Below, piece by piece: positions 12,752 to 63,600 of a stretch of 64,000 nt of DNA (position 1 is its first letter; every line of letters begins with the position of its first letter). Under the pieces are notes generated by a model that saw nothing but the letters and a program-made list of their open reading frames with translations, was not told the DNA's origin and ran no database searches. Both the position numbers and the translations under genes were made by a program. The stretch is from Schmidtea nova (Eukaryota). The stretch lies in contig CM097883.1 of assembly GCA_044892505.1 (NCBI GenBank), positions 351,354,001 to 351,418,000 on the forward strand, given 5' to 3'.

Positions 12752-13210
12752 TTATATTGCAAATTGTTTTACATAGCTTTTGACAGTCTCGTTATATTCA
12801 TTAATATCGTTAATATATAAATTGGCTGCTTTAGTATTTAATGGGCTGTAAGGATTCGGATCGGCTAACAATGAAATAATTGATATTAAAACTTTGCTGA
12901 TATTTAAACAAGGTGCCCAGTTATCTTTTAGAATGTCTAAACAAATTCCGTTTTTATAAATATTTGGATGAAATATCTTTGTAAGAAATTCTATTCGAGG
13001 AGGTGAAAAAGGATATCTTTCTGGTAAATGTAGTTTCAATTTAAATAAACCCTCTTCAAATGGAGTATCAACAGGACCTTTAATTGTCGCATTCCATATG
13101 TAAATATTATTTTCTTCAGGAGCTGCACTGATTTTTATATCATTATCTGAACATTCTTTTAGCCATTTAATGTCGTTTTTAATTCTAATCATAAACTTGG
13201 AGTTGCTCAT
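12752..13210 (-). CDS. intronless ubiquitin-conjugating enzyme E2 (UBC fold), 152 aa
   Basis: Open ORF from ATG at 13210 with GPVDTPFEEGLF, YPFSPP, FHPN, catalytic Cys in ICLDIL, and W.P...I..VL.SI.SLL.DPN. It has one residue fewer than usual between HPN and the Cys. Confidence 0.92.
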   Translation of the reverse strand: MSNSKFMIRIKNDIKWLKECSDNDIKISAAPEENNIYIWNATIKGPVDTPFEEGLFKLKLHLPERYPFSPPRIEFLTKIFHPNIYKNGICLDILKDNWAPCLNISKVLISIISLLADPNPYSPLNTKAANLYINDINEYNETVKSYVKQFAI

Positions 13211-14673
13211 AACTAACACTAAATATTTTTAAATTGTTATGTTTTTTAAAATAAATAGTACTTAATTAATTAAATAATTTAATTTCGGTGATTTTCATTG
13301 GATTAAATTTTAAAATNNNNNNNNNNNNNNNNNNNNNNNNNNNNNNNNNNNNNNNNNNNNNNNNNNNNNNNNNNNNNNNNNNNNNNNNNNNNNNNNNNNN
13401 NNNNNNNNNNNNNNNNNNNNNNNNNNNNNNNNNNNNNNNNNNNNNNNNNNNNNNNNNNNNNNNNNNNNNNNNNNNNNNNNNNNNNNNNNNNNNNNATGAC
13501 TATAGATCAAAAAATTTTTTTTTTATAAACAACACAATATTTCGGCACAGCCTTTATNNNNNNNNNNNNNNNNNNNNNNNNNNNNNNNNNNNNNNNNNNN
13601 NNNNNNNNNNNNNNNNNNNNNNNNNNNNNNNNNNNNNNNNNNNNNNNNNNNNNNNNNNNNNNNNNNNNNNNNNNNNNNNNNNNNNNNNNNNNNNTGTGCC
13701 GAAATATTGTGTACTTATTTAAAGAAATTTTGATCTAGTCTTACCATTATGGAAATTATTGATATTAATATTAAAAAAGATCAAAGGTGAAACAAAAAGA
13801 AAATTATGATTATATATATACAGGGCCGGCCCGAGCTCTTATGGCGCCCTAGGCCAAGGGTGTAAATCTCGCCCCATAAGTTTTAACAAACAAAAAAAAG
13901 AATCAACTAAAAATTTTTTATTTTGTTATTATGATTGGCAATGCTATATATATATATATATATATTTGGGAAGGCGGTTGTTAAATTATTCTCTAGCAAA
14001 TAGTTTAGAATTGCAGTAGGAGAATCACAACAATCTGTAGACAAATGATTTTTGATGTATTAATTCGTCAAACAAATCCAAGCCGGAAATATCCTTTTGA
14101 TCACCGTCAGTTAGGAGAATACAATCAAATTTTGCATCTGTTCTATAGTCTTCCAGGAACACCATGCTCTTTGATAACAACGTTACTGCTTGGCTCAGGT
14201 TTAAACCAACTTCTTGAAATGCTTTGCTAGTTACAATTATATCAAACAAAATATCATACCATACAATTAAAGAGCAGATAAATTTCTATTTTTCAATATT
14301 TTGCAATATAGCTGTGGCTTCTGACTTGTTCCTCGCTGCTGTGACTGTGGTAACATTAGGTTGCCCATCCTCATTCATACAATCATACAGAGCCGCAATA
14401 ACTTCTTTGAGGTGATATCGTAGAGGCTTTAAAGCATCAATTCAACTGGCCCATCTAATTTCACTTAGACTTTTCAACGTAAAATTAGCTATATATTTTT
14501 TTTAATAAAGCCCAGCGTTGAGTTGACGATGAGAAAAAACATACAAATGCTGAATGATATCTGGTCGCGCCCGCTTTGTAAAATATTAAAAAAATTAATT
14601 AAATAAAAATAAAATAGTTAAAGGCGGGGCTTGATGGCTGTGAGAGATTGTGGGGCGAGCCTGGAAGTCTGAA

Positions 14674-16107: not shown

Positions 16108-16554
16108 TTGGGAAGTGATATTGAAGGGGCAGAATTATTGGATGTTTTGAATAGGTGCAACTATGAGCGTATGAACGAACTAGCTAGTCAATTGTTTGGT
16201 CATATTTCTATCCAGCCTGATAACAAGCAGCAGCTGATTTATGCGTTCCGCCAGGAGGTAAATGATGCTGCTGTTGATAATTGTGAAAGTGAAACAGTTC
16301 CCGTTAATGGGGTAGAGGAGAACATTTGTTTGTCTTCGGATGAGGAGGAAGACATTGGTGGTGATTCCCATTTGTCTTCGTCTGCGTTCTCGTTGGTGTA
16401 CACGGATGATGATAATGATGATGGCGCTGACAGAATCAGGAAGACGCGGATCAGTGACAATCCGGGGAAAGCAGTTATTGGATTGCTGAATGATGATGAT
16501 GATGATGACAATGATTCCGACATCGAAAAAATCAAAAGCGCCTGGCTGGATGAT
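16108..16554 (+). other. acidic ORF fragment of unknown origin at the 3' end of the insert
   Basis: About 150 open codons, higher in GC than the flanks and D/E-rich (SSDEEED, DDDDDDNDSD). No ATG start (TTG) and no family recognised. Confidence 0.4.
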
Positions 16555-19500
16555 ATGATATCAAAAAAGTTATACCTTCAACACAATAGCTGGCAGAATC
16601 ATTCACCACTAAATTTAAGAAATGTGCACTGCAAGGAACAAACAAATCTCTTGGGTTTAAATTAAGAATCCTACTTTGGACACCGCTATGTCGTCCGCGC
16701 ATATTGGAGCCGTTATCATAACTTTGACCTCTCATATTGGCCACTGACAAGTTATTTGACTCGAATACTTCTATAATCTTATCTGTAATTCCATCTCCGG
16801 AACTATTATCAATTTCAATGAAACTTAAGAAATGCTCATGCACCTCAATGTATTTTTCATCACCACTTGGACATACCGCTCGGACAATTAATGACATTTG
16901 CTCAATATGGGAAACATCTGGAGTACAATCAATGATTATTGAATAATATTTATTCAGTTTTATTAAGTTTGTAATATTTTCTTTGACTGCAGAATTTAAC
17001 AACGTAATCATTTCATTTTGAATTCTTTTTGAATTCTGCCCAAGTAATGTACGTGTAATTCTTTATTTTTTATTTGACATACGTGTTCTTTCAAGATTGG
17101 GTCGAATTTGGCTATAAGCTCCACAATTTTTAAGAAATTTCCATTGTTATCTTCATATAACTTATCAGTTGTTCCTCTCAAAGCAAGGTTCTGTGATTAT
17201 TTGTGATTTCAAATAATCTCTCCAATACATTTCGCCAACGTATTGTATTTTCATTCACGAGTTTTTTATTAAATGAGTCAATAGTTTTTCCTTCATTCAA
17301 TCTTCTGACCAAGTCATATTTGGGCCAATATTTTGCGGCCATTTCCCGATATCGGACAAATAGTCTTGGATACTTGGAACAACATCTAAAGAATTATATT
17401 CGGAATTTACCGTTTCCGAATGAGAATTTATGTCAAATGTGTCATCAATGCTATGATCTGATTCGAGATCAGGTTCTGGATTGGAACAATATTCTTCAAC
17501 GTCCAATGATTTCGATGAATTTATCAGATCTGAATCGGTGCAGGTAGACTCTGTCTCAATATGTTGGAGCTCATTTCCCGATTCTGAATCGTCACTTTAA
17601 CGATCAACATTTTCAGATTTAAAAAAAGTAGAAAACTTTTGACATTTTTGTATTTGATTTTCCTGCTCTGCTTTTCTTTTTCTACTTTGGTAGCCACTTA
17701 ATTTTTTTGGAGGCATTATTATGAGTTAAATATAAAGCCTAACAATGTAGAAAAACGAAAGATTAGAACGCTTATATTAAAACAAAGATTTATATCCTAT
17801 TATCTGTCTATAATTTATAGATATTCATTGATATTCATTCATCAATACGCACAACATACCTATTCTTTTTACCGCTGCAACTTCGATTGAATTTTCAAAA
17901 CACTGAACTTTAATTTTAATATCACTGACCACTTACTTTGAAAACTGCAACACTAAATATTATTTTAGAAGTTTAATACTTGTGTAGGTAGTGTTAAAAT
18001 AATATTTATGGTTGCTATGACTACCAACGGTATTTGTGATTAATACGCAGAATATTTTTAAAAATGTAATAATTTACTACTTATTTTAAATAAACGCAAT
18101 TTTTTTATTGCGTACCATAATTTTAATTTACTATTAAGTCTTATAAGCCCTAATATCTTGCGAAGGATTGATTTTATTGTTTTCATATATGGTGCCCCTA
18201 CCAGCCAAGCGACCCAAGCTATGGCCTTACTGGCTCGACTCTAGGGCCGGCCCTATATATATATATATAAAATTTTTAGAAGTACACGAATTTTTTTAAT
18301 TAAACATTATAAAAAAGAAAATTTTTAAATTAAATATAACTATTTCATATTCAAGGTTTATTATTATTTCAAATTTTTAAAAATCAGACGAAATTAAAAT
18401 ATTAAATATATTAAAATCATAAAAATATATTAAGTTGTTCACATTAACTATTTTACTATTACTGATAAAATATTTTTTGAAAAATGCTGTTCGAAAATTT
18501 GTATAAGTAGAGATTCCTAGATCAAGCCCAATATCATAGAGACCTCCCCCATTTTTTGACCAACACAAAGAATTTTCAAAAATCCATTAACCCATTTCAC
18601 ATTTTCTTAATAAATAATGAAAAATTTTTATCTATCTAAAATTGACTAAATAATCTAAATTTACAAAAAGCTAAATTTTTATCTATCTAAAATTGACTAA
18701 ATAATCTAAATTTACAAAAAGCTATTTTACATTCATATCGAAAATGCGACAACAATTTGTAGTTCTGGTATGACACTAGAAAAACGGAAATTATATATAC
18801 TCATTCATTTCTTGACGGTGTACTCAACAGGATTTTATTTGTAATACAGAAATTACCGTGCAAAACAGTGTATAAACGTCATTGTCAACTATAGGGTTAA
18901 AAATCAATAATTGTTGAAATATTTTCAATGTCCGTTTGGTCATAGAATTATATAAAAAATTATCGAATGATTTATTTTTCTTGGATACTGGATATTTTGA
19001 CTTATCTAAAATATACGGGAAGATATTTCTTTTTGAAAATTACTTTTACTTTCCTATAATATTATTATCATTAAAATTCTTCAATATTAAAATAAAATAC
19101 ATGAAATTTTATTTTTTGAACAAACTTTTAAGTGTCTTTGAATTAGTTTATTAATCAGTTTTTGTTTTTCTAGAAATATAAAAAAATTATCGAACTCCAA
19201 AAAGCCCAAACAATTTAATTTTAAACTTAATTTTCAATAACTTTTACTTTTTTTTACACTCATATTATTATTTGCGTAAAATACATACACATTTTAAATT
19301 ATAAATATATGTATAGATATTTACGTAGACTTTTAAACAAATAAGTAGAAAAGAAAGAAATTTTCCTGGTTTTGTTGGAATGTCTTTATTGAGGAAAAGA
19401 TGATAAATCGATTTGCTGTTGATAACTAAAGTGAATGCTGACTCGTTTCCATAGTTTCGAAAAATAGTATTTAAAAGTTAAAATACCTTTAAAAATCACA

Positions 19501-23136: not shown

Positions 23137-23730
23137 TTATACTTTTTCAGAAACATAAAATTTATATATATTTCCATTAAATTTGTGTATTTTGACTCTC
23201 CTCCTTATAGCTTCCATGATCGAGCTAGTGATGGTTTCAGGATAGAATAAATCCAAGTCATTGATGCAAAAAACTCGAGGAATGCCTTTTGGAATTGTTG
23301 CAACGCCATATTTGATGTTAATTGCATTCTCATATGCGCAGTCCACTAAGCACAGAAATTCATCTACGTGTGCGTTGTTGAAATAGAGGTCGTCAAACAC
23401 CAAGCCATCACACAAATCGATATTAGATGAGATTTTATTCAGACTCTGTATATGCTTTACATGCACCGGGTGTTTAAAGTGCGAGAGCGCAAAATTAGTT
23501 TTGCCTATACCACTCTCTCCAAAGAATATGTGTGACTTCCAATCAAACACATTTATATGATCTATAACAAATCCAGAGCCAAAATTCGGTAATGTTTCCT
23601 CTCCAAAAGCATTAATCAAACTTTCTACTATACTCTTTCTCTTAGTTAAGTAATGAAACGATTCAGAAGACTTTATAATATTTATTACTTCATTCAAAGT
23701 TTTAGCATCGAGTGCTTGTTTAAAATTGCA
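23137..23730 (-). other. rep: endogenous CRESS-DNA virus Rep fragment (oligomerisation region plus SF3 helicase)
   Basis: Open frame KQALDAKTLNEVINIIK... with Walker A GESGIGKT, Walker B LVFDD, NIKYG, motif C FCIN and arginine finger AIRRR. The HUH endonuclease domain is absent. Confidence 0.85.
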
Positions 23731-23829
23731 TCTTTAACAATATCACAATTATATTTACTAGGCTCTCCTATCTTCAGTTGGATTCCGTTGGCGACTCTGG
23801 ACTCTGGCTTGCAACAGTATTAATTTTTC

Positions 23830-25600
23830 ATTAAGTTTTTCCACATTTCTTTCGATTATTTTACCATTTTCATTTCTTAAGATGTATCGTCTATCATGCA
23901 CTTTCTCGTTCACTTTGTATGGACCTTCATATCTGTCCTGGCTTTTGTTGCGTGTTTCTAATTTTACTAACACTTCTCGTACAGTGATTTTTCTCCTTGT
24001 TTGTTCTTCTAGTTCTTCCTTTACCGGTATTTCTTTGGACCCGTACCATTTTTCCCTGCTAATCTTTTTTCCAAAAAACTATCTCTGCCGGGCTTTTCCC
24101 TGTTGTTTTTTGTTTGGTTGCATTTAATGTGAATTCGACTTCTGGTAATATCTCTGCCCAATCCGTCTTCCTTCTATCCTGTAGAGTAGCATTTATCAGC
24201 TCCCGTATTGTCCCGTATTGTCTTTCTATCTGACCGTTTGTTTGGTGATGGTATGGACTCGAAAAACATAATTTAATATCTAGCATCTTTGTAAAATCTC
24301 TCATCATTCCTGATTCAAACGCCTTTCCACAATCAACTCTTATCTCCTTTGGGCATCCAAATCTTAAAATCCACTTTTCTAAAATCGTTTTCTTTATTGT
24401 TTCCTCGTCTTGTTTTGTTATCGCTGTCAAAACTTGATACTTACTATGCTGGTCTATTATACCCAATATATACTTCTTACGTCCTTTTGTTTCTTTTAAC
24501 GGTCCACATATATCCACGAATATAATTTCGAACATTTCATTTGATTCTTGTTTATTTACTGGTTCTTTCGTTGTTATTGTTATAGCTTTGGTTTTTTGAC
24601 AAATCTCACAACTTCGAACAATTTCCTGAATCTGACTCCACAGGTGTTTTCCAACATATCTATCTTTCATATATTCGGCGATCTTCTTGACTCCCGCATG
24701 ACACAATAGTCTATGTATTTCCTTTATTGTTTCTCGTAACTCATTTTCAGGTATCATCGTTTTCTTTCGTACTTCTTCTTCTACAATTCCATGTTGGTTG
24801 TTGCTTCTCCCTTCTTCTCTGATCGAGTCTAGTAATCTGGTTTTTATCTTTCCTTTCTTAGCTTCTTCGTGGGCCATTTGACACTGAACACACATGTCAC
24901 ATTTAGTTCTCGACACCATGTCTGCATTTTGGTGATTAATACCCTTTCTGTATTCTACGCTTATATATAAACTGCTTAAATAATTGATCCATGTTTGGAA
25001 TTGTGTAGTAATCGGCTTCTTGGTTGTCATCATAAACGTGATTGCCTTGTGATCTGTCCTGAGCGTGAATCTTCTTCCGTAGAGATAGTGCTTAAAATGA
25101 ATGCAAAAATAATATACCGCCAATAGTTCCTTTCTTGTAATACAATATCCTTTCTCATGGCTCGTCATCGAGTGTGATCCATACGCAATTACTCTTTCCT
25201 TTCCATCTTTATCTCTTTGTGAAAGTAATGATCCGATGGTATCAAAACTAGCGTCAGTATCTAAAATGAACTCCTTTTCCAGATCCGGAAAACATAAGAT
25301 CGGCGCCGTCGTGAGTGCTAATTTCAATCCTTTCAAACACGCTATTCGTTCCTTCAGTCCATTCTAATTTTTTGTTACTTGGTCCGCTACATAATTGTTC
25401 TAACATCCTTGCCTTCTTTGCATACTCACTGATGAATCTTCTATAATAATAGCAAATACCTAAAAAGCTTAGGAGTTTCTTTACGCAATTTGGCTTCCCA
25501 AAGTTTTGTTTGGCCTGAATCTTAGATGGATCTGTCTGTACTCCTTCCTTGCTGATTATGTGTCCTAAGAATCTGATTTCTTTCTTTATTCTTTTGTCGA
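23830..25600 (-). mobile_element. Ty3/Gypsy pol fragment (end of RT, RNase H, integrase)
   Basis: FLGHIIS, LTTAPIL.FPD, ILDTDAS, ELLAV, LRTDHKA, H.LLCHAG...C.IC, FVDICGP, VDCGKAF, YHHQTNGQIER and RYEGPY. Few frameshifts; 5' part missing. Confidence 0.95.
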
Positions 25601-26190
25601 GAATATCCAAGTAAAGAATACTTCAAATCTTTGGCTAAGGTCAGAATAAAGCGCCGTTAAGTGTTGACAATAAGCAAATAAATCTTCATCTTTTTTTTGC
25701 AATTTTGAAAGATTTTGAAATTCAGAACATTCTCCTCTTCCCAAGTTTTGTTTGTATAGCAAAAGCTTTGCAACAAAGGCAGATATTACACTTTTAGTTT
25801 TGATTAAATTTAATGTGTCAACTTCTAGTTTCAAATTAGTCTCGTTAAATCTGGCAAATAGATCAGTCATATAAGCGATGCCATTTTTTGAGATAATTAA
25901 ATTGTGCCACAAATTATTGTCTTTACTCTCCAGGAATTCCAACACTGAATCAAAGAGCGAATAGAAGCGATCCAAACATACACTTTTAGATAACCAACGT
26001 ACTTCTGTGTTAAGTAGTAAACGATTAAAGTAATCATTATTTTCCAAAAAAAGTTGAGCAAATAATCTCTCATTTAAGGCATTCCTTTTTATTTTATTAA
26101 CTGCTCTAATGATATAATGTAGTGATTCATGCAAACGTTCACTAAGGTTTTTGCGACCAAATGATGTCGATGAATGACACAATTCTAGAA

Positions 26191-54081: not shown

Positions 54082-57000
54082 AAAAAATCAGTTCATTTCT
54101 TTGGAAATTTATTTTATTTGTACCGGATATTAGTGATCACGTAAACCTTATTTGCGTACAATTGATTCATATTCTGAATCTTTGCAATTAGAATTGGTGT
54201 CAAAGAGGTACTGGTGTATGAGTATAAAAATGTTATCATCAAAATTATAGAATCTAAATTCTTCGAAATGAAATAATTTCTTAAAATCTCAGGAGTTGGA
54301 ATAAATAGTTCTTTTTATTCTTCCATTTAAAATTCATATTAACTCTATTGAGCAGAAAGTTTATAAATATAGAATAAATATAAAATAGAGTTATAATTAT
54401 TAGGTTTTCTAAAATGAAGATTATAACAATGCAAATATTAAAAAGTGGAGCACTTTATTCAAAAGGCGAAAAGTTTCTTTAATCAATTTTAACAATCGAA
54501 GATGGCGTTTTCGAAGTCCATAATTAAATTTTAAATTCAATAATTATTAATAAAATTCACAAAATTTGAACTCTATTTTTTTGTCAGAGTATTTCAAACG
54601 ATAAAATAACAAAATAATTTTAATCAGATTGAAATGAGCAATAAAAATTAATTAATTTTCATTTTCCAAAATATTACATTTAATTAAATTCTTTGAACCA
54701 TAAAATTTGAATGGGAAAATAGAATAAAAATAAAAAATGATAGGAAAGAGTGCGAATTTCGGTGGGTCTAATACCCCTTTAACCACATTAAGCGGAAAAC
54801 GTTTTGTTCTTATTAAGCTATTTTTATAACTACTAATGCCAAAAATATAAGCGGGAAATAAATTCAAATTGTGTTTATTTACGAATTTGAATTAAATATT
54901 ATGTAGTTTGAAACTGAAGCAGCGGTGACCAGAGTGTGAAATGTATAAAATCCATGATAGATTAGTACCTCATAATAAATTCGTAACTCCATTAAAATAC
55001 AAAATAAGGGAAATTTAATTACAGCTTTAGATGAACAAATACTTTTAGAAATCCCGAAATATTGGCCACATGATGAAGGAATTTGTTTTATTTTAATGTT
55101 ATTTGTTTTTTGAGATAATTTTGTGAACAAAATTTTCTTTGATTTCGTCTCTGGCCCATGCCGCAGAGGAACTACGTCAAATTTATGCCTGAATTGATAA
55201 AAAATTTGCTAAATATAAAAAGAACGTAGTACCATCCAACTAAATGAACACCTCAAAATGGGAGATTACACTGATAACAGAAAATTGTTTTAGTTAAAAA
55301 TATAAAATCTTTGTCTCCAGCTCCTGGTGAGAAAACAGACGGACAAACTTGCTTTCTTTAAGTATTAAAGCGGCGAACCACTTCAATACAGTGAATACTA
55401 AGGAATGCTAAGCTTTCTCTGGCAACCAGAACCACTCACCGTCTTACCAACAAAACCGGGGTCACTAGTTTCGAAACGACTAAAGGCTTTAAAAGAAATT
55501 ATGCTAATAAATGATTTATAGAAAGAAATGCGGTTAACAACATTGAATTTTTGAGCTACTTGAATATCATTAATGGTGAATGTGGACTTCTAATTGAGCT
55601 TAATTTAGTTGATAATATATTTCTTAATGTTATTATTCTCGTTTTATTTCAATAAACACATAAGCACGTAAATTTTCTGTTTTAAATTTTTCAAGTTAAA
55701 AAAATTTAAAAAAATGTCTCTAAAGTCAAACATGCATTAAAATAATGATGTTTATGATTGGTTCGTTGATTTATAGGTGTTAGATTAGTTGAAAATATTT
55801 TATCGTGTCTAGTAAGATTTATTGATATTTTAAGTTAAGTGATATATTAATTCAACTTAAATAAATATTCATAGAAAACTATTTATTTATGTTCATTTTT
55901 TGACAGTTTATTGTTGTTATGTACTTTTCGTAATTTGAAACCAAGCTTGAATTGACATAATAATATAAATTACTCTGATTTATACTATTTTTTAAATACC
56001 ATTAAATCTATTTTGACAGTTTACTATGAAACTTATTTTGATGGACATTACATTTAAATTTGTTTTGGTTAATTGTTCAATTTAAGTCATTTTTACTTTG
56101 TATTGGCTATAATTCTAATTTTTACTTACCAAATTACCTAAAAATAAATTTTTACGCTTTTCGCCTATTTATAATTAGCCTGTAACCTATTTGTTTGCTT
56201 CACATTATGGTAAATTTTTTCTCTATTATATTCATTGACATCTGGGTTTTAGCTTATATAGAAAAATCTGAAAATTTTTTTCAATTTGATTTTAAGTTAC
56301 TAATATTATTTTCTGCTCGTAGTTATGGATCGTTTTAGGGAATTTTGATTACTTGTTGTGTGTCTGTGTCAACTTAGATTCTGTTAAATCGCTCTCGCTT
56401 TTTCCACTTCATCCTCTCTCCGCTACTCAAGTCTAAATTAATCTGCCCGGAAACCAGTGGCTTTCATCTTGATAATAATTTGGAGATTTATGTGATATTA
56501 TTGTCCTCACAGGTATTTCCTTTTCCTCTACATTGACTACTCTATCACGAAATCCTAAGATGTTCAAAAATGTAAAAAATGACCAATTTCAGTTTATTCA
56601 ACTTTACTGCGACAGTTCGTAAATCATGGTTTGGTTTTGATGGGAGACTTTCCCATTGATGTTACGGGTTAATCCATTTATAATAGTAACAATAAAAAGG
56701 GCGTCGTTGGAGAATTTCAAGTTTAAGGCGATTTTTAATTTATAATTCTAGAGAACATTTGCTTAATAAATTTTTCTTTTCGACTATTGATTCTTACATT
56801 TGTTTTGTGTGTCGCAATTTAATTACACAAGAAATTTTTATGCGAGGTAGTAAATGTCAATTTCTAACATTACTATATTTTCAAAGATTTACTAAAAATT
56901 CATCTAAAAATTTTATAATTGGTATTAAAGAGTTAACTTTTATGTAATTGTTACCAACTTATGTAACCTAGGTGAAATTCCCCCAAGTCAGGTAAATAGT

Positions 57001-58164
57001 TAACCAAAATATCAATCCCCCAAAGTAATATATTTAATTTTAGAGAACTTTGTAAAATTAAATTAAATTTTTTCGAGTCATGTAATTTGTCTCATAACTT
57101 AAGTTTTTATTTTTTTCAGTACGATAATTAAGCATATAGGGTGTTAACGAATAAAACGTTGACTTTTTTCATGAGTGCTATAACCAGTTTTATATGATTT
57201 TATTGAGTGAATTTTCTAATTTTATAAGTAGTATAATCAATCTATAGATTTAATAATTATCTTTTTTAATAAGATAACTAAGTATATAGGATGTTATTGA
57301 TTGAAATTATCGATTTGATGGTTTATATGAATGAATAAATTTCTATGTGAATTTTCTAAGTGAGGTGATTGATGAAGGCGATGTTATTGATTAAAAACGA
57401 TTTAGTGAATTGCAAATATGAATGTATGTATCGCTTCTTATTTTTAGGAGGGGTATTTTATGGAATAATGTATTTAATAAGATTTTATCGGTATTTTATA
57501 AAATAATAGTTTAATTTACAATCTATAATTTTTATGAAAGGGTTAGGATAAAATTGAATTTATAATTTATGAATTTTATAAGAGAATCAGGAAAAATTAA
57601 ATTTATTATTTTTGTAACAATGAATTTATTTTGGATTTGAATAATAGGTATCTTTTAGGTTTTCAGCGATGCATAATTTTGTGATTATGAAAATTTTATA
57701 TCTTTATTTTTTAAGTTTCGAATAAAATTAATTCAAATTTTTCTAAATAAATCATATATAAAAATTTGCGAATATAATTAATTAAGGATATCTAAACTAA
57801 AATTTTAATAAATAGTTTTTCGATTTAAAGTATACTCTAACTAAACTTTATAAAATAAAATAAAATCGTTTTTATAAATTACCACAAAGCTTTAGGTTTC
57901 ATAGTGTGAAAATCATTATAATTTCAATTACGTTTACGGTTTCCATTTATGTACTGAGTTCTCAGTACGACTAAAATGATTTCATGATTCCTCTTCTGAT
58001 AAGGTGAAGAAGATTTCTACATAAATGATATCGACTTCAAATATGTACATTTTTCTTATATCAATTGTTAGATTGTTGTTTTAATGAATGTGAATTAGTA
58101 TGAATTAGTTTTGTATTAATAGTAATAACTACTATAGTATAATGCAGATAACTTTTTTTTGAAC

Positions 58165-60611
58165 AACCTTGCTCTCGGCCAAGCCAATACTCCTCATATA
58201 GCCAGGTATGAGTTCTCTGCAAACTCTGTCATCCATAGTCTGTGTCCAATTCGTTTAGATCGATTGTCTTCCTCAATTGGTATTACAGAGTAATCAAGTA
58301 TCTGCTTGTAAGAGGATGCTGAGAAGTTCATGATCTTAGTAGACATTTCCTTATAGAGACTCGAGAATCTTCTTATTTGCAATAACTTTCTCAACTCAGC
58401 TTTAGATCAATCTGAATACTTTTTGATCATAAGACGGCTCTCGGTACCAGTCATTTGTAGGTTATTTATTACCTTCCACTCGATCATTTTATAAGTTGGT
58501 GGCTTGACACTAGTTGAGTTAAACTCTAGGATTGTGTATCCTAGAACAGTTTTTTTCTACTGTGCTCAGAGTTGTGAGTTTCAGCCTAGAATATGAGTAG
58601 TTAATTGAAAGAGATGAAGATTCATGAGTATATTTGTTTATTGACGACGTGAATTGTATAGGTACAAAACCTTCTCTTTTGCTCCATTTTTGACAGGTGG
58701 TTCAATCTAAGTAAATTGAGCTCGAGTGCCTACCATTGCTCTCTGTGAAACGTAATTCTTTATACAGCCCACACAATGGGTTCTGCATCCTCATTTGCGG
58801 TCTCAGATCTCTCATAGTCACAAAAGTGATGAAATCGTCAAGCATCCTTATTTCCACCTGCTCTTTATTGATGTTGACATTCCAGAAACCTACTCCTGTA
58901 TACTTTCCCTTGTGATACCTCTGGCTTGTGAAGAAGCCAACAATCGTGCAACTCTGACAATTCTCCAGGAGACCCATGGAGCACTCTCCCTCAACAAATT
59001 ATTTCATAAAAATGTACAAAATTCTTGAATCCTCATCTAAATCCAGAGTTTAGAGATCTAAAGTTTCAATGCAGAAGAGTGCTCTAAGAAGAGAGTCTTT
59101 ATAGCGGCCATTGAACTTTCATCTGGACATTTTGATAATCTCCACAATTTTGTTTTCAAGATTAAGAGTCTTTTAAGAGATATGTGCGGAGTAAAGACGT
59201 TGAAGGACTTGGGCTAATAACAATTTATAGTCGCCTTTGCAACTGTGCCAGTGATATCAATAGTTCTAGATTTTGAAACTATTGAGGAGAGGAAAGATTT
59301 CAGTCTGAAAGCATAGTGGAATGGGCTTTTGTTAAGAATGTCAGCAAAGGAATCAGATAACCAAAGAAAGAGTAATTTGTACTTAGCGAAGGCTGGTTCT
59401 TTCAATTTCGATCATCCTTGGATTGGTATGAAGAACTATTTTTCCTTGCTCAAAGCCAAGAGTGGAAAATTTGATACGACTGCTTCCCGTAACACTAACA
59501 GAAATAAAATCACTCTTTACTAGTTGTAGGTTGAATTGCACTAAGCTTTTAAAGAAAAATCTTTCTGGGAAAATTATTTTCTCGAAGTCTTCATCTAGCT
59601 CCGAGATTGTTACGGGAAAACTTTCAATAAGCTCAAGAAGAGTTAACTTTCTTTGTTCTGTCATCTCTCTTACTTCTGTGGAGGCTGTCGGGATTCTCTC
59701 TTTTGTTATATAACAGGATGTAGCATGGAGAATTGCTGGGCAAAAATAGTCCAGCGCCTCCATCATGGATAGCTGTGTATATCGATGTATAAAGTGACTA
59801 GAAGTTCTTCAGAGCTGAGTTGACTGCGAAAAGCCATTTCCGGATTTCTCTCAATTAAGGTTTGAGATCAGTCAATATCAATATCCAATCTATTCTTTTG
59901 AAATTTTTCTCTTTGTCCAACATACAGATTTACTTTTAGAAAGAGTGGGTCTTCTGAGTTCATACGCTTGAGATTTACTGCATGTTGCGCATTCAGAACA
60001 TCCCTCACTAAAGGATCACTAATACAAGAGTTGTACAATGCTAATCGGAAGCTTCCTATGCTAAATGTCAGAGGAGGTTCCAAAAATACTTCCCTAGAGA
60101 AGGATGTGGCTTCTTCTTCAAAGCAGATTAGAATCTGTTGAAGTAGTCGAAGTTGTTAATCAGCCCGAAAATAGGTATAATAAAGTAGACATTGCAGAAT
60201 GTCGCAAATATTTATGAATTTCAGACAGCAGCCATTCTTATTGAGTTGATGTCTTGAGTTAGAGTACTGATGAAGACAATCGTCGATCTTGATTTTCACT
60301 GTAGTGTTGATGAATGGCTTAGATGTACTTGATTGTAGATCTCAGGATAGTGTTCTTGCAAGTCAGCCGGAGTTGAACTCAAAAATTCCAGAGCTGGCTG
60401 CAATTGTGCTCTTTTCAGTAGAGGAACTTGCTGACCAATATCTCATACTTTGCTCTCTAGCAATTAAAAGGATTTTCGCATAATACAACTCCTTGACTAT
60501 TGTCTTCCTTCCAAGGCCCTCTATGTTGAAGGTAATTAAAATTGTGGAGTCGTCAGAAGATTGAATAATAGAATAGAATAATCGTTGAGAGATAAAGAAG
60601 GCAGTTTTCAT
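58165..60611 (-). pseudogene. L: endogenous Phenuiviridae-like (bunyavirus) L/RdRp fragment, ~2.4 kb
   Basis: Motif C QSSDDS, motif D TEKST and motif E FEFNS. Downstream blocks are collinear with phlebovirus L: GQREKFQ...NPE, LWLSDSFADILNKSPF...SKSRTIDITG and GFFTSQR...YTGVGFW. Many stops and frameshifts. Confidence 0.88.
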
Positions 60612-63600
60612 TATAATGAAAAGAATAATATGAATATAAAATCAATATGATGTTAAATTTAAATTGGAATGAATAACAATTAGTTTATCTGAAAATGATA
60701 CATAAGCATAAAATCTTGTGAATGAAGTCAAAATTAATATCAATATAAAATAATATAATTATTAAATGGTTGATACAACTACATACTAAAGGTGACCTAT
60801 GCCGACAATTTAATAAAAAGAAAAAGAAAATAAGATTAATATAAAATGAATTAATATAAAAAGCTGAGCCTTGGTTGACGAGCATGAACAGGTCAACCCA
60901 CGCTAACAATCAAAAGGCTTACATTCCAATACGATTGCCTGATTGAATTAATAAAATCAGAAAGGTTTTCGGCCAAAATCAAACGGAACAGTGGTTAGTG
61001 GTTTCGACTGTCGCTTGAGGCTGTGGTTTTAATGTGTTCGTGCTGATTCTCGTAAGTGATTTTCTTCTTTTGTGGAGGTCCGTCTCAAAAATAATTTGGC
61101 ATAAAATTCGGAAAATCTTTTCTTTGAACAAAATTTTTTTGGACAGTTTCACTTTATGAGTCTTTTAGCAGTTGGCTATGTGCAAATTCCGGCAAATTCT
61201 GATGAAATCCATTTTGATGGCGGTATATATATATATATATATATAGTTATCTTCTACTTTTATTTTTGTTGATGTATTAAAACAAATTGTTCTAGAAGGA
61301 ATTTTCCGATTTTTCAAAATTAATTTCAACAATTTTACGAAAAATTGAATTATTATTTTTGCATAAAATTTTAAATAAACACTAAATAATTTATTTTTGA
61401 TTTAAAATTTCATTTTTTAATCACAGTTTTTCCTAACTTAATTAATTTATCATAATTTCTAACTAAACCAATTTTCTTTCGTATTTTTTGAATTTTTACA
61501 CTGAACTTCGAAAATTTCCTCCCGAAAAGATGTTAATTTGTTTCTAATGTGCTTTTCTACGACACAATTGATGTTTTCACGTTACACATGTGTTTTCATG
61601 TATAGACTCAATGCGCTTGTTTGTTTCAATTTTTCAACGTGTTTTTAATCAATTATTTGATGTGTTCTGCTTTTACTGGGTTGTACTTGGTGTTTTGGGT
61701 TCAAAGAATTTCAAATCTACTTCTACATGTTGTAATACCGCGCCATTTAAACAAACCTCAGTTTTTGCCCAACATGTATTTGGAAGATTGCTAGCATATA
61801 CAACTTCGTATGAAATAAATTTTGGATTGATGGATCATTGCTTTTACGACCAATCAAACGTTTTGTATCGACTTCGGTGCTCAAAATAGAATAATAACGA
61901 AACGAACATGATCAGTTTAAAGCTTTATTTCTAAACAAAGTAATATTATTTAAACGATATTTAATTGTAATTTTCGTCATAATTTCAATTTTATTTTACT
62001 TATTTTTAAGCCGGCCATCAACATTAATTGTTATAGTATTGTTTTCAGGATGGATTTTTACTACCGTTATAACCGCAATATTGTTAAATAGTTTTGATCC
62101 TTTCTTTTTTCATTTGCCAGTATGACTTGAAATTCTGTGATTTTTATATTGTCATTTTTGAAAATGGGATTTATTTTGTAATTTTATCTTGGTTATCGAA
62201 TTGATAATGGATTCAACTATAAACAATCCTTAAATAAATATTTTAATTATCTCTGATATAGTGAGTACTGTTGTGATAATTTGAAGATTTTATTGCAGCC
62301 AATGAAGTGTGTTGATTTTTATTGGCTTTGATGTGAGTCCAATTAAATGGACATGTTTTATTGCTAATTGTATTCGTCCAATTTGGTTGTTTGGTTGTCT
62401 TTGTGTGAAGCTTTCATGGAATCTGGGGCAGAGGGATTTGTGTGTGTTCAAATTCATTGTGTGTGTATTTTTGTTGACTTGCTTTTGTAACTTAAAAGAT
62501 TGCGTGAGTTAGTTTTTGCTCTGATTGGGTCTTTTAAAAAAGAAGTGTCTTGAGGTGTGTGAGTTGAGTTAGAATTGAATTTTGAAATTAAAATAAATAA
62601 ATTTTTTACAGTCTCGATTTTGAATTGGATTTATTTTGCAAATTTTCTTTTGAATTGACAATATATTATAATAATGAGTCCTAACGGCGTTAATGGATAA
62701 TCAGCATCATTTAACGCCATATCAACAGGAGAAGTTGGTATTATGAACGAAGCTATTGTTGGATGGTCATAAAATATTCTGTCTAAATAAATATTATAAA
62801 ATATGACAGAATAAATAAAGAATATGTGTCAAGGAATAATTATCAAAATGCCAATTTGAATAGATGCCAATTTAACCAGATCGTCCAATTGGCCAAATAC
62901 CCAATTGTTCAGATTGAGTTGCATCATATGTGATTCAAACATTAATATTTTATTTGGCATTAATCGAATTTATATTTTATTTGATTTTATTTGACTTTAT
63001 TTGAATTGTATTATTTTTGTTTTTGGGACTCAATAATAAAAGTTAGATATATAAAATGGGATTTATCCTATCAAATAAGCTAAAGAAATAGTTTTGTTTT
63101 CTCTTGTTAAATAAAATTTTTATAGATTTAACAATTTGATTTAATAAATTAATAATTTTTATCAATAGTATAGATATTTACAAATTAAGCATAAAAAAGA
63201 AAAACTTACAGTTGGTCAAATCCGATAACGTTTATGCTCTTTGTTATCACAAATAATGAAAAACTGCTCACAATAAATAAATAAATTTTCTAAATTTAAA
63301 ATAAAATTTTGACATGAATGAATAAATTAACAGACTTGATACTTTTCAGTTTCTGTTCTCTGATTTTTGGAAATAGTCCATATAAATCTAAAACTCAAGA
63401 GGCAATATTGTAAGTGTGCTGGTATCCAAAATTTTAGTCAGCCCAAAAAATAGAGCTAATTTATCTAAGACTTTTTCAATAAAAAATCTTCATATAGTAA
63501 AAGTTGCAATGGATATAAACAACTAGTCAATGCAAAGACCACTGATGTAAGTGGTGTAACAAGCTCTAATCGTCCTGGAGAATATAAAGATTATTATTAC

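Follow-up and report, generated by a model that had tools for sequence, protein, structure and literature searches.

The 64,000-nucleotide stretch of the Schmidtea nova genome analysed here (the window) contains a non-retroviral endogenous viral element (EVE): a piece of a bunyaviral L (RNA-dependent RNA polymerase) gene that has RNA-virus homology, is flanked by host DNA, and is disrupted by stops and frameshifts. It appears to belong to a lineage whose closest known member is Tricladiphe virus, a virus of another triclad, and it interrupts a long terminal repeat (LTR) that probably derives from a Burro-type giant Gypsy retrotransposon. The finding adds a planarian to the hosts of negative-strand RNA virus fossils and connects these fossils with a triclad virus that is still living.

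A decayed L gene and its nearest virus

The viral features all lie on the minus strand:

58213..60610 (-): decayed bunyaviral L (RdRp) gene fragment, by tblastn and frameshift-aware alignment
60549..60557 (-): motif C, SDD, from the sequence and aligned to the SDD of solved L proteins
60405..60416 (-): motif D region, EKST, from the sequence and aligned to solved L proteins and Tricladiphe L
60369..60380 (-): motif E, EFNS, from the sequence and aligned to solved L proteins and Tricladiphe L

A sequence-only reading of this DNA had described a degraded minus-strand L copy at 58165-60611 with SDD, EKST, and EFNS in order, and our analysis bears out its central claim: the motifs are ordered at these coordinates in a single minus-strand frame. 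Its extent holds for 58213-60610 and fails for the last 48 bases (58165-58212), which are host LTR and not virus. Its start, given as about 15 codons before SDD, is of the right order of size; the viral part begins about 18 codons ahead of that motif. Motifs A and B, reported missing, and the N-terminal endonuclease were found neither in the fragment nor in the next 10 kb upstream, and MMQG (which we take to mark the motif B region; residue 1099 of Tricladiphe L) is absent from the 64-kb window. These missing parts lower the case for a working polymerase, not the case for derivation from L.

Tricladiphe L carries the same words as the fragment, with SDD at residue 1144, EKST at 1192, and EFNS at 1204. 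The fragment corresponds to approximately residues 1125-1970 of this 2077-residue protein, about 40% of the L gene, presumably the end of the palm followed by the thumb and C-terminal regions; it includes no segment terminus. Its far end, where the last 20-50 bases align weakly, probably lies near residue 1970, as placed through a sister copy elsewhere in the genome. In a tblastn search, Tricladiphe L matched the window in four collinear high-scoring segment pairs (HSPs) over residues 1141-1842; the first pair has a combined E of 1e-42 and the second pair one of 2e-26. The best scored 115 bits, against 18.9 bits for the reversed region and at most 23.5 bits for other 2.6-kb tiles of window positions 1-57,200; the similarity to L is not due to chance. 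In a frameshift-aware alignment the fragment is 39% identical (190/484) to Tricladiphe L. Against copies from elsewhere in the genome, identity is 64% (205/322) for 60607-59632 and 50% (170/338) for 59255-58235. The GC content is about 0.37 in the viral part versus about 0.2 in the flanks.

Domain searches of the broken copy gave weak matches or none. The single-frame read-through (P0001) scored 14.2 bits with the Pfam family Bunya_RdRp (PF04196; E 0.015), below the cut-off of 25, and the window frame matched solved L proteins at E 7e-4; all ten stop-to-stop fragments were without a viral Pfam family. The sister copy (84.2 bits) and Tricladiphe L (103.3 bits) both exceed the same cut-off.

Nine stops and ten frameshifts are distributed along the whole fragment, and no stop-free stretch in the viral sense exceeds 141 codons, so the locus cannot today encode a working polymerase. 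It is most likely decaying neutrally; service as a source of small RNAs is possible. That it is a co-opted host gene still making protein is exceedingly improbable: the short stop-free stretches refute a full product, motifs A and B are missing, and the breaks spare no part of the fragment. Nothing at this locus favors co-option, the nearest hint being open frames of 200-480 codons at some nucleocapsid-like places elsewhere in the genome. Neutral change of 7-9% (range 3-16%) would account for the nine stops. The 5′ half of the LTR lies 7.1-9.6% away from three subfamily-A copies, so the two apparent ages agree roughly.

The reading's claim that the sequence is endogenised is upheld by its position on a 456-Mb contig with host LTR on both sides. 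Further support comes from four public runs (three samples, one study), possibly the assembly's own source and not independent of it. In three of the four, one contig spans from 58183 to 60664 or 60705 with 0-1 other letters, at depths of 13.8, 32.9, and 18.7 versus 12, 34.2, and 16.2 for the flank contig; the fragment is present in all three samples with 0-1 other letters. Reads spanning both junctions had been proposed as a check: the 5′ junction is passed by 53-94 letters (three of four runs), whereas coverage reaches 30 letters beyond the 3′ junction, a single letter too few for the bridging rule applied. None of the RNA runs is listed as holding the stretch, and this was not counted as evidence. 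An assembly artefact or contamination with viral RNA draws on that missing letter and on the single study, whose library type is not on record. It is nevertheless very improbable, because nine stops and ten frameshifts are impossible in a replicating virus, depth is even and like that of the flank across four runs and three samples, a defined LTR segment is precisely replaced, and 17 other L-derived places lie on three large contigs.

The sister copy, a natural frame of 411 codons, matches Bunya_RdRp at E 1e-23 and solved L proteins at E 6e-24. Among 1.84 billion representative proteins its best match is a 2077-residue protein (45% identity, E 1e-97), followed by one at 33% (E 8e-56); the other matches of at least 700 residues among the top 15 reach at most 35%. 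The best match is DAZ87940.1, the L protein of Tricladiphe virus, an unassigned member of Bunyavirales from the triclad Procotyla fluviatilis in which L is segment 1 (PMC9241645, in the part consulted). The tBLASTn check attached to the sequence-only reading thus returns bunyaviral L proteins with Tricladiphe L on top.

Phylogeny with a flatworm-associated virus, also called for there, agrees. In the finished tree (32 rows and 291 columns, no outgroup; 5 of 9 other EVE rows and 26 of 51 database rows taken), the window and five other genomic copies form one clade (support 100/99), which is sister to Tricladiphe virus (100/99). Named phenuivirids (Hunter Island virus, Wuhan Insect virus 1, and Hangzhou phenuivirus 3) form a separate clade, the deeper forks being without resolution in this tree without an outgroup. 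A quick tree of 61 rows, which was unfinished and from which 2 of 11 EVE rows were dropped for having fewer than 90 residues, agrees with it. Nesting within Phlebovirus was not seen in either tree. Best match and supported sister group together point to a Tricladiphe-like lineage, and a phenui-like affinity fits the evidence. The downstream blocks that the earlier reading had called phlebovirus-specific are indeed collinear with L; the label is too narrow, since the sister is Tricladiphe virus, outside the named-phenuivirid clade. Its past, flatworm-infecting phenui-like lineage likewise stands as phenui-like and with a triclad sister virus, but is not only past, Tricladiphe virus being a living member. 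Five short unnamed database proteins (P0017, P0033, P0075, P0111, and P0119) are 40-53% identical in the palm to Tricladiphe L and the genomic copies, and are equally near to both.

The solved L proteins (PDB 7eei, 9qtb, 6y6k, and 8as6), which we take to be those of Rift Valley fever virus and SFTS virus, align collinearly through motifs C-E and beyond; these phlebo-/bandavirus proteins are far more distant from the fragment than Tricladiphe virus is. Tricladiphe L was described from a transcriptome as an exogenous, intact 2077-residue gene (PMC9241645, part consulted), whereas the window copy is integrated and broken; it has the same motif words, but is a distinct, more derived relative.

In the consulted part of PMC9241645, the viruses reported there are stated as not found in flatworm genomes, and the part of PMC4384744 consulted had already placed a Procotyla virus within arthropod-associated diversity. 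The EVEs of ticks and Daphnia treated in that part of PMC4384744 are similar in being partial, disrupted L and N copies, often inside transposons and from repeated independent integrations; that screen covered arthropod genomes, whereas the present host is a planarian and the element a probable Burro-type LTR. No earlier report of bunyaviral EVEs in planarians was found in the literature searched (subscription journals and some supplements were outside its scope): the words "viral," "virus," and "endogenous" are all absent from the main text of PMC11410931, and the consulted part of PMC6085071 contains no such report. Non-retroviral EVEs and LTR-mediated capture were already known; the planarian host group appears to be new.

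The surrounding LTR

The LTR flanks, and the many other viral copies in the genome, had escaped the earlier reading. The following features surround the viral fragment:

60607..61774 (-): 5′ portion of a putative Burro-type LTR (subfamily A), running from the TG terminus as far as the virus; 84-87% identical to copies L060-L062
60607..60610 (-): 4-base overlap where the LTR meets the virus on the 5′ side, matching LTR and viral copies alike; possible microsimilarity
56910..58212 (-): 3′ portion of the LTR, from subfamily B of the family; the LTR sequence picks up here after a gap of about 142 bases

The host repeat on one side starts exactly at 58212 and that on the other side ends at 60607; the two are collinear parts of a single LTR family, and the viral coding strand is the sense strand of the element. 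LTR copies without virus have 138-147 bases at the position of the virus in 19 of the 20 subfamily-A-like copies examined; the core motif is missing from the remaining one. The 4-base overlap is too short to exclude chance in AT-rich DNA.

The two halves differ in subfamily. The 5′ flank matches three A copies at 266-279 of 300 positions versus at most 176 for B copies (a fourth A copy, with a deletion there, matches at 186), and the 3′ flank matches six B copies at 210-238 of 300 versus 190-199 for A. The best sibling of the 3′ half is 71-80% identical, with none close, and this half may be older than the 5′ half. It fades near 56910 without an LTR end, so that the window's own LTR copy has a TG start only, and neither an LTR end motif nor a target duplication was found around the chimera in the 64-kb window. 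No clear virus-free mosaic of an A-type 5′ and a B-type 3′ part was found among 19 copies with the core, of which 14 are plainly A-type and 5 ambiguous; the best of them matches the window's 3′ flank at 182 of 250 positions, versus 197 for a B copy.

This conserved core of about 190 bases contains an antisense frame of 61-66 codons, without a Pfam match, and a hairpin-like inverted repeat (e.g., L046:5477-5749 (-)); 2838 first-look candidates for it were counted in the genome. Both viral junctions lie at or in the core, which is partly deleted at the window junction. Just outside the LTR start, 61790-61890 (-) has no Pfam match and presumably resembles an N-terminal segment of Hsp70. Of 11 short frames around the locus, 10 had no Pfam match and one had a weak one.

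The assignment to a Burro-type giant Gypsy element draws on other copies of the family, whose paired TG...CA repeats and internal domains suggest it. The same LTR terminus opens a 99%-identical pair of direct repeats 48 kb apart, a 99.7% pair of 4142 bases 11.7 kb apart, and solo LTRs; the copies end in CA, and 4-base target duplications were found in three of four elements checked, the fourth (L049) being ambiguous. The internal region encodes a retroviral-type aspartyl protease and ankyrin, RING-TRAF-MATH, and BIR-RING domains, and the Burro list in the consulted part of a review comprises protease, ankyrin, MATH/TRAF, BIR, RING, and coiled-coil frames (PMC6431247). Over parts of their length, the window's subfamilies resemble the young paired family at 71-77%, and the A-type copies L060 and L061 come after the same internal junction as in that family; this partial likeness, the shared terminus, and the common junction tie the young pairs to the window LTR. 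Reverse transcriptase and integrase of the family were not located in the stretches examined, nor was a second LTR upstream within 40 kb of L061 or 30 kb of L060. With the published Burro/GYPSM1 elements the family has in common the domain set, long LTRs, and thousands of candidates, a likeness that rests on description rather than sequence comparison (PMC6431247, part consulted); that part does not mention capture of RNA viruses by Burro.

Other identities for the flank were considered and rejected: a tRNA-derived SINE (no tRNAs in five loci), a structured RNA (no Rfam match on the repeat in two loci), and a Polinton terminal repeat (both orientations occur beside the same Polinton genes). 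Two core pairs were rejected as LTR pairs, one being a 14-kb tandem duplication and the other surrounding a Polinton. Polinton/Maverick-like elements, with frames for a protein-primed DNA polymerase, an A32-type ATPase, an integrase, and a capsid-like protein, lie repeatedly beside or inside Burro-type elements (L075-L076, L096-L097, L107, and L111-L112), and the two kinds of element have a secreted-type accessory frame in common.

Origin of the insertion

These viruses have no DNA stage; a host reverse transcriptase would therefore have made the DNA, as the sequence-only reading had supposed, and the evidence is compatible with this. Retrotransposons are known to make DNA copies of RNA viruses in insects (PMC5198996, part consulted). 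The likeliest origin of the fragment, to which we give about even odds, is a double template switch during retrotransposon reverse transcription. The enzyme, copying the LTR of a subfamily-B RNA, would have jumped to plus-sense viral RNA (mRNA or antigenome), landing near its 3′ end; it would have copied 2.4 kb of viral RNA towards the 5′ end and then jumped onto a subfamily-A RNA at a nearly matching LTR position. The chimera would have been integrated in a cell feeding the germ line, and the element body and the far end of the LTR would have been lost later.

A hallmark of template switching is a partial RNA copy set within a discontinuous LTR element (PMC5131818, part consulted), and here the insert replaces part of a discontinuous, same-sense LTR element. 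The cases of LTR-mediated retroposition described there are alike in having a partial RNA copy, no poly(A), and part of the element replaced; unlike them, the present case involves a captured viral RNA, two subfamilies, switch points in the LTR, and microsimilarity of at most 4 bases. The microsimilarity comprises the 4 bases at the 5′ junction. Intact junction anatomy together with hundreds of empty-site LTR copies points to one host element as the likely maker.

Several observations weigh against a template switch. Co-packaging of two subfamilies must be assumed because the halves come from different ones, and a later deletion must be assumed for the lost LTR end and target duplication. The 3′ half is without a close sibling and may be the older of the two; microsimilarity amounts to 4 bases at the one junction where it could be assessed; the switch points fall within the LTR, unlike in Drosophila, where internal reading frames were replaced (PMC5131818, part consulted); and the arrangement was not seen at the other 17 L places in the stretches examined.

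Because the halves differ in subfamily, the far end is lost, and the microsimilarity is short, we retain a less likely explanation, which we nonetheless take seriously: a double-strand break or deletion brought an upstream A-type LTR next to a downstream B-type one, and free viral cDNA from any host reverse transcriptase was ligated in during repair, with the LTRs as landing site and not maker. The apparent difference in age between the halves, the missing LTR end and target duplication, the lack of LTR flanks at most other L and N places, and the LINE-like and gypsy remnants in the window would all fit such a patch. It accounts less readily for breakpoints that lie about 142 bases apart in a 4-5-kb LTR, collinear and in the viral sense, as two unrelated breaks would seldom do, or for landing in LTR matches that make up 0.9% of 195 kb of comparison DNA (stretches not chosen at random).

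A secondary move is improbable. In this scenario an older EVE, after transcription or duplication, entered the LTR by capture or recombination, and a host transcript or host DNA, rather than a live virus, served as template. With at least 18 L places in the genome, among them duplicates and tandem arrays, sources for such a copy do exist, but no parent was identified: in DNA the nearest copies reach 62-75% identity (a floor, the best candidates having been scored), and they occupy separate branches of the tree, the pattern that independent captures from a changing virus would leave.

Other viral sequences and features of the window

A DNA search of the genome itself (1.25 Gb, 283 contigs; counts are floors) identified related L copies 64-75% identical to the fragment. 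Grouped with the matches from further searches, these give no fewer than 18 L-derived places at least 50 kb apart, the window included, some being duplicates. All 17 other places match Tricladiphe L in tblastn. Five of these (four independent) have an LTR match within about 0.5 kb, compared with 7 of 180 1-kb bins of non-random DNA, and an LTR sandwich of the window's type occurs at none of the 17 in the stretches examined. Two tandem L arrays were found: one at G000:C2:93.64-93.73 Mb with units of 1697 bases and of 1711-1759 bases, the second size occurring about 19 times (97-99% alike), and one at G000:C1:610.30-610.32 Mb with seven matches in a 4443-base period (99.9%). They could be recent amplifications or partly an assembly effect.

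The genome also has 16 matches above cut-off to the Tenui/Phlebo nucleocapsid family (Tenui_N, PF05733; L023-L027 and L118-L127), in two groups approximately 35-50% identical to each other; all six frames rechecked were confirmed. Six of 15 loci examined have open frames of 201-476 codons from the first Met, and one open frame is 486 codons long. These long frames are candidates for young insertions or co-option, and the nucleocapsid-like sequences may be linked to the window's L.

The range of identity among the L copies (62-75% in DNA) indicates that viruses of a Tricladiphe-like lineage do enter germ-line-feeding cells of flatworms, and that they have entered them more than once. Planarians have RNAi and PIWI proteins, and small-RNA data for them exist, so the question of EVE-derived piRNAs outside arthropods is directly testable in these animals. 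A speculative, and on present evidence doubtful, extension is that the copies form a heritable archive of flatworm-specific bunyaviruses, written by Burro through template switching, amplified in tandem, and read as PIWI-bound small RNAs in neoblasts. If true, such an archive would be a mosquito-type EVE-piRNA antiviral memory outside arthropods, in adult stem cells.

Elsewhere in the window, a 198-codon frame (23137-23733 (-)) resembles the helicase half of the Rep protein of CRESS-DNA viruses; it has no Pfam or PDB match, and its Atlas features score 0.97 against clusters mostly of Cressdnaviricota. It is likely a second, unrelated viral fossil. An intronless frame for a ubiquitin-conjugating enzyme (12752-13228 (-); PF00179, E 1e-45) is possibly a retrocopy or an element-borne gene. 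By their appearance, we take 50332-51521 (-) to be the end of an R2-type LINE, 24059-28068 (-) a gypsy pol beside pieces of a hAT-type transposase, 16532-17062 (-) a second hAT piece, and 42978-43980 (+) a mariner transposase. A host gene resembling IRF2BP was uninformative on taxonomy: its best matches are rotifer proteins at 32%, and no flatworm is named among the 120 listed of 628 matches. A planarian host is nevertheless suggested by the Burro-type elements, by the triclad sister virus, and by one match to mir-753, presumably a planarian microRNA family, that exceeds the Rfam gathering score.
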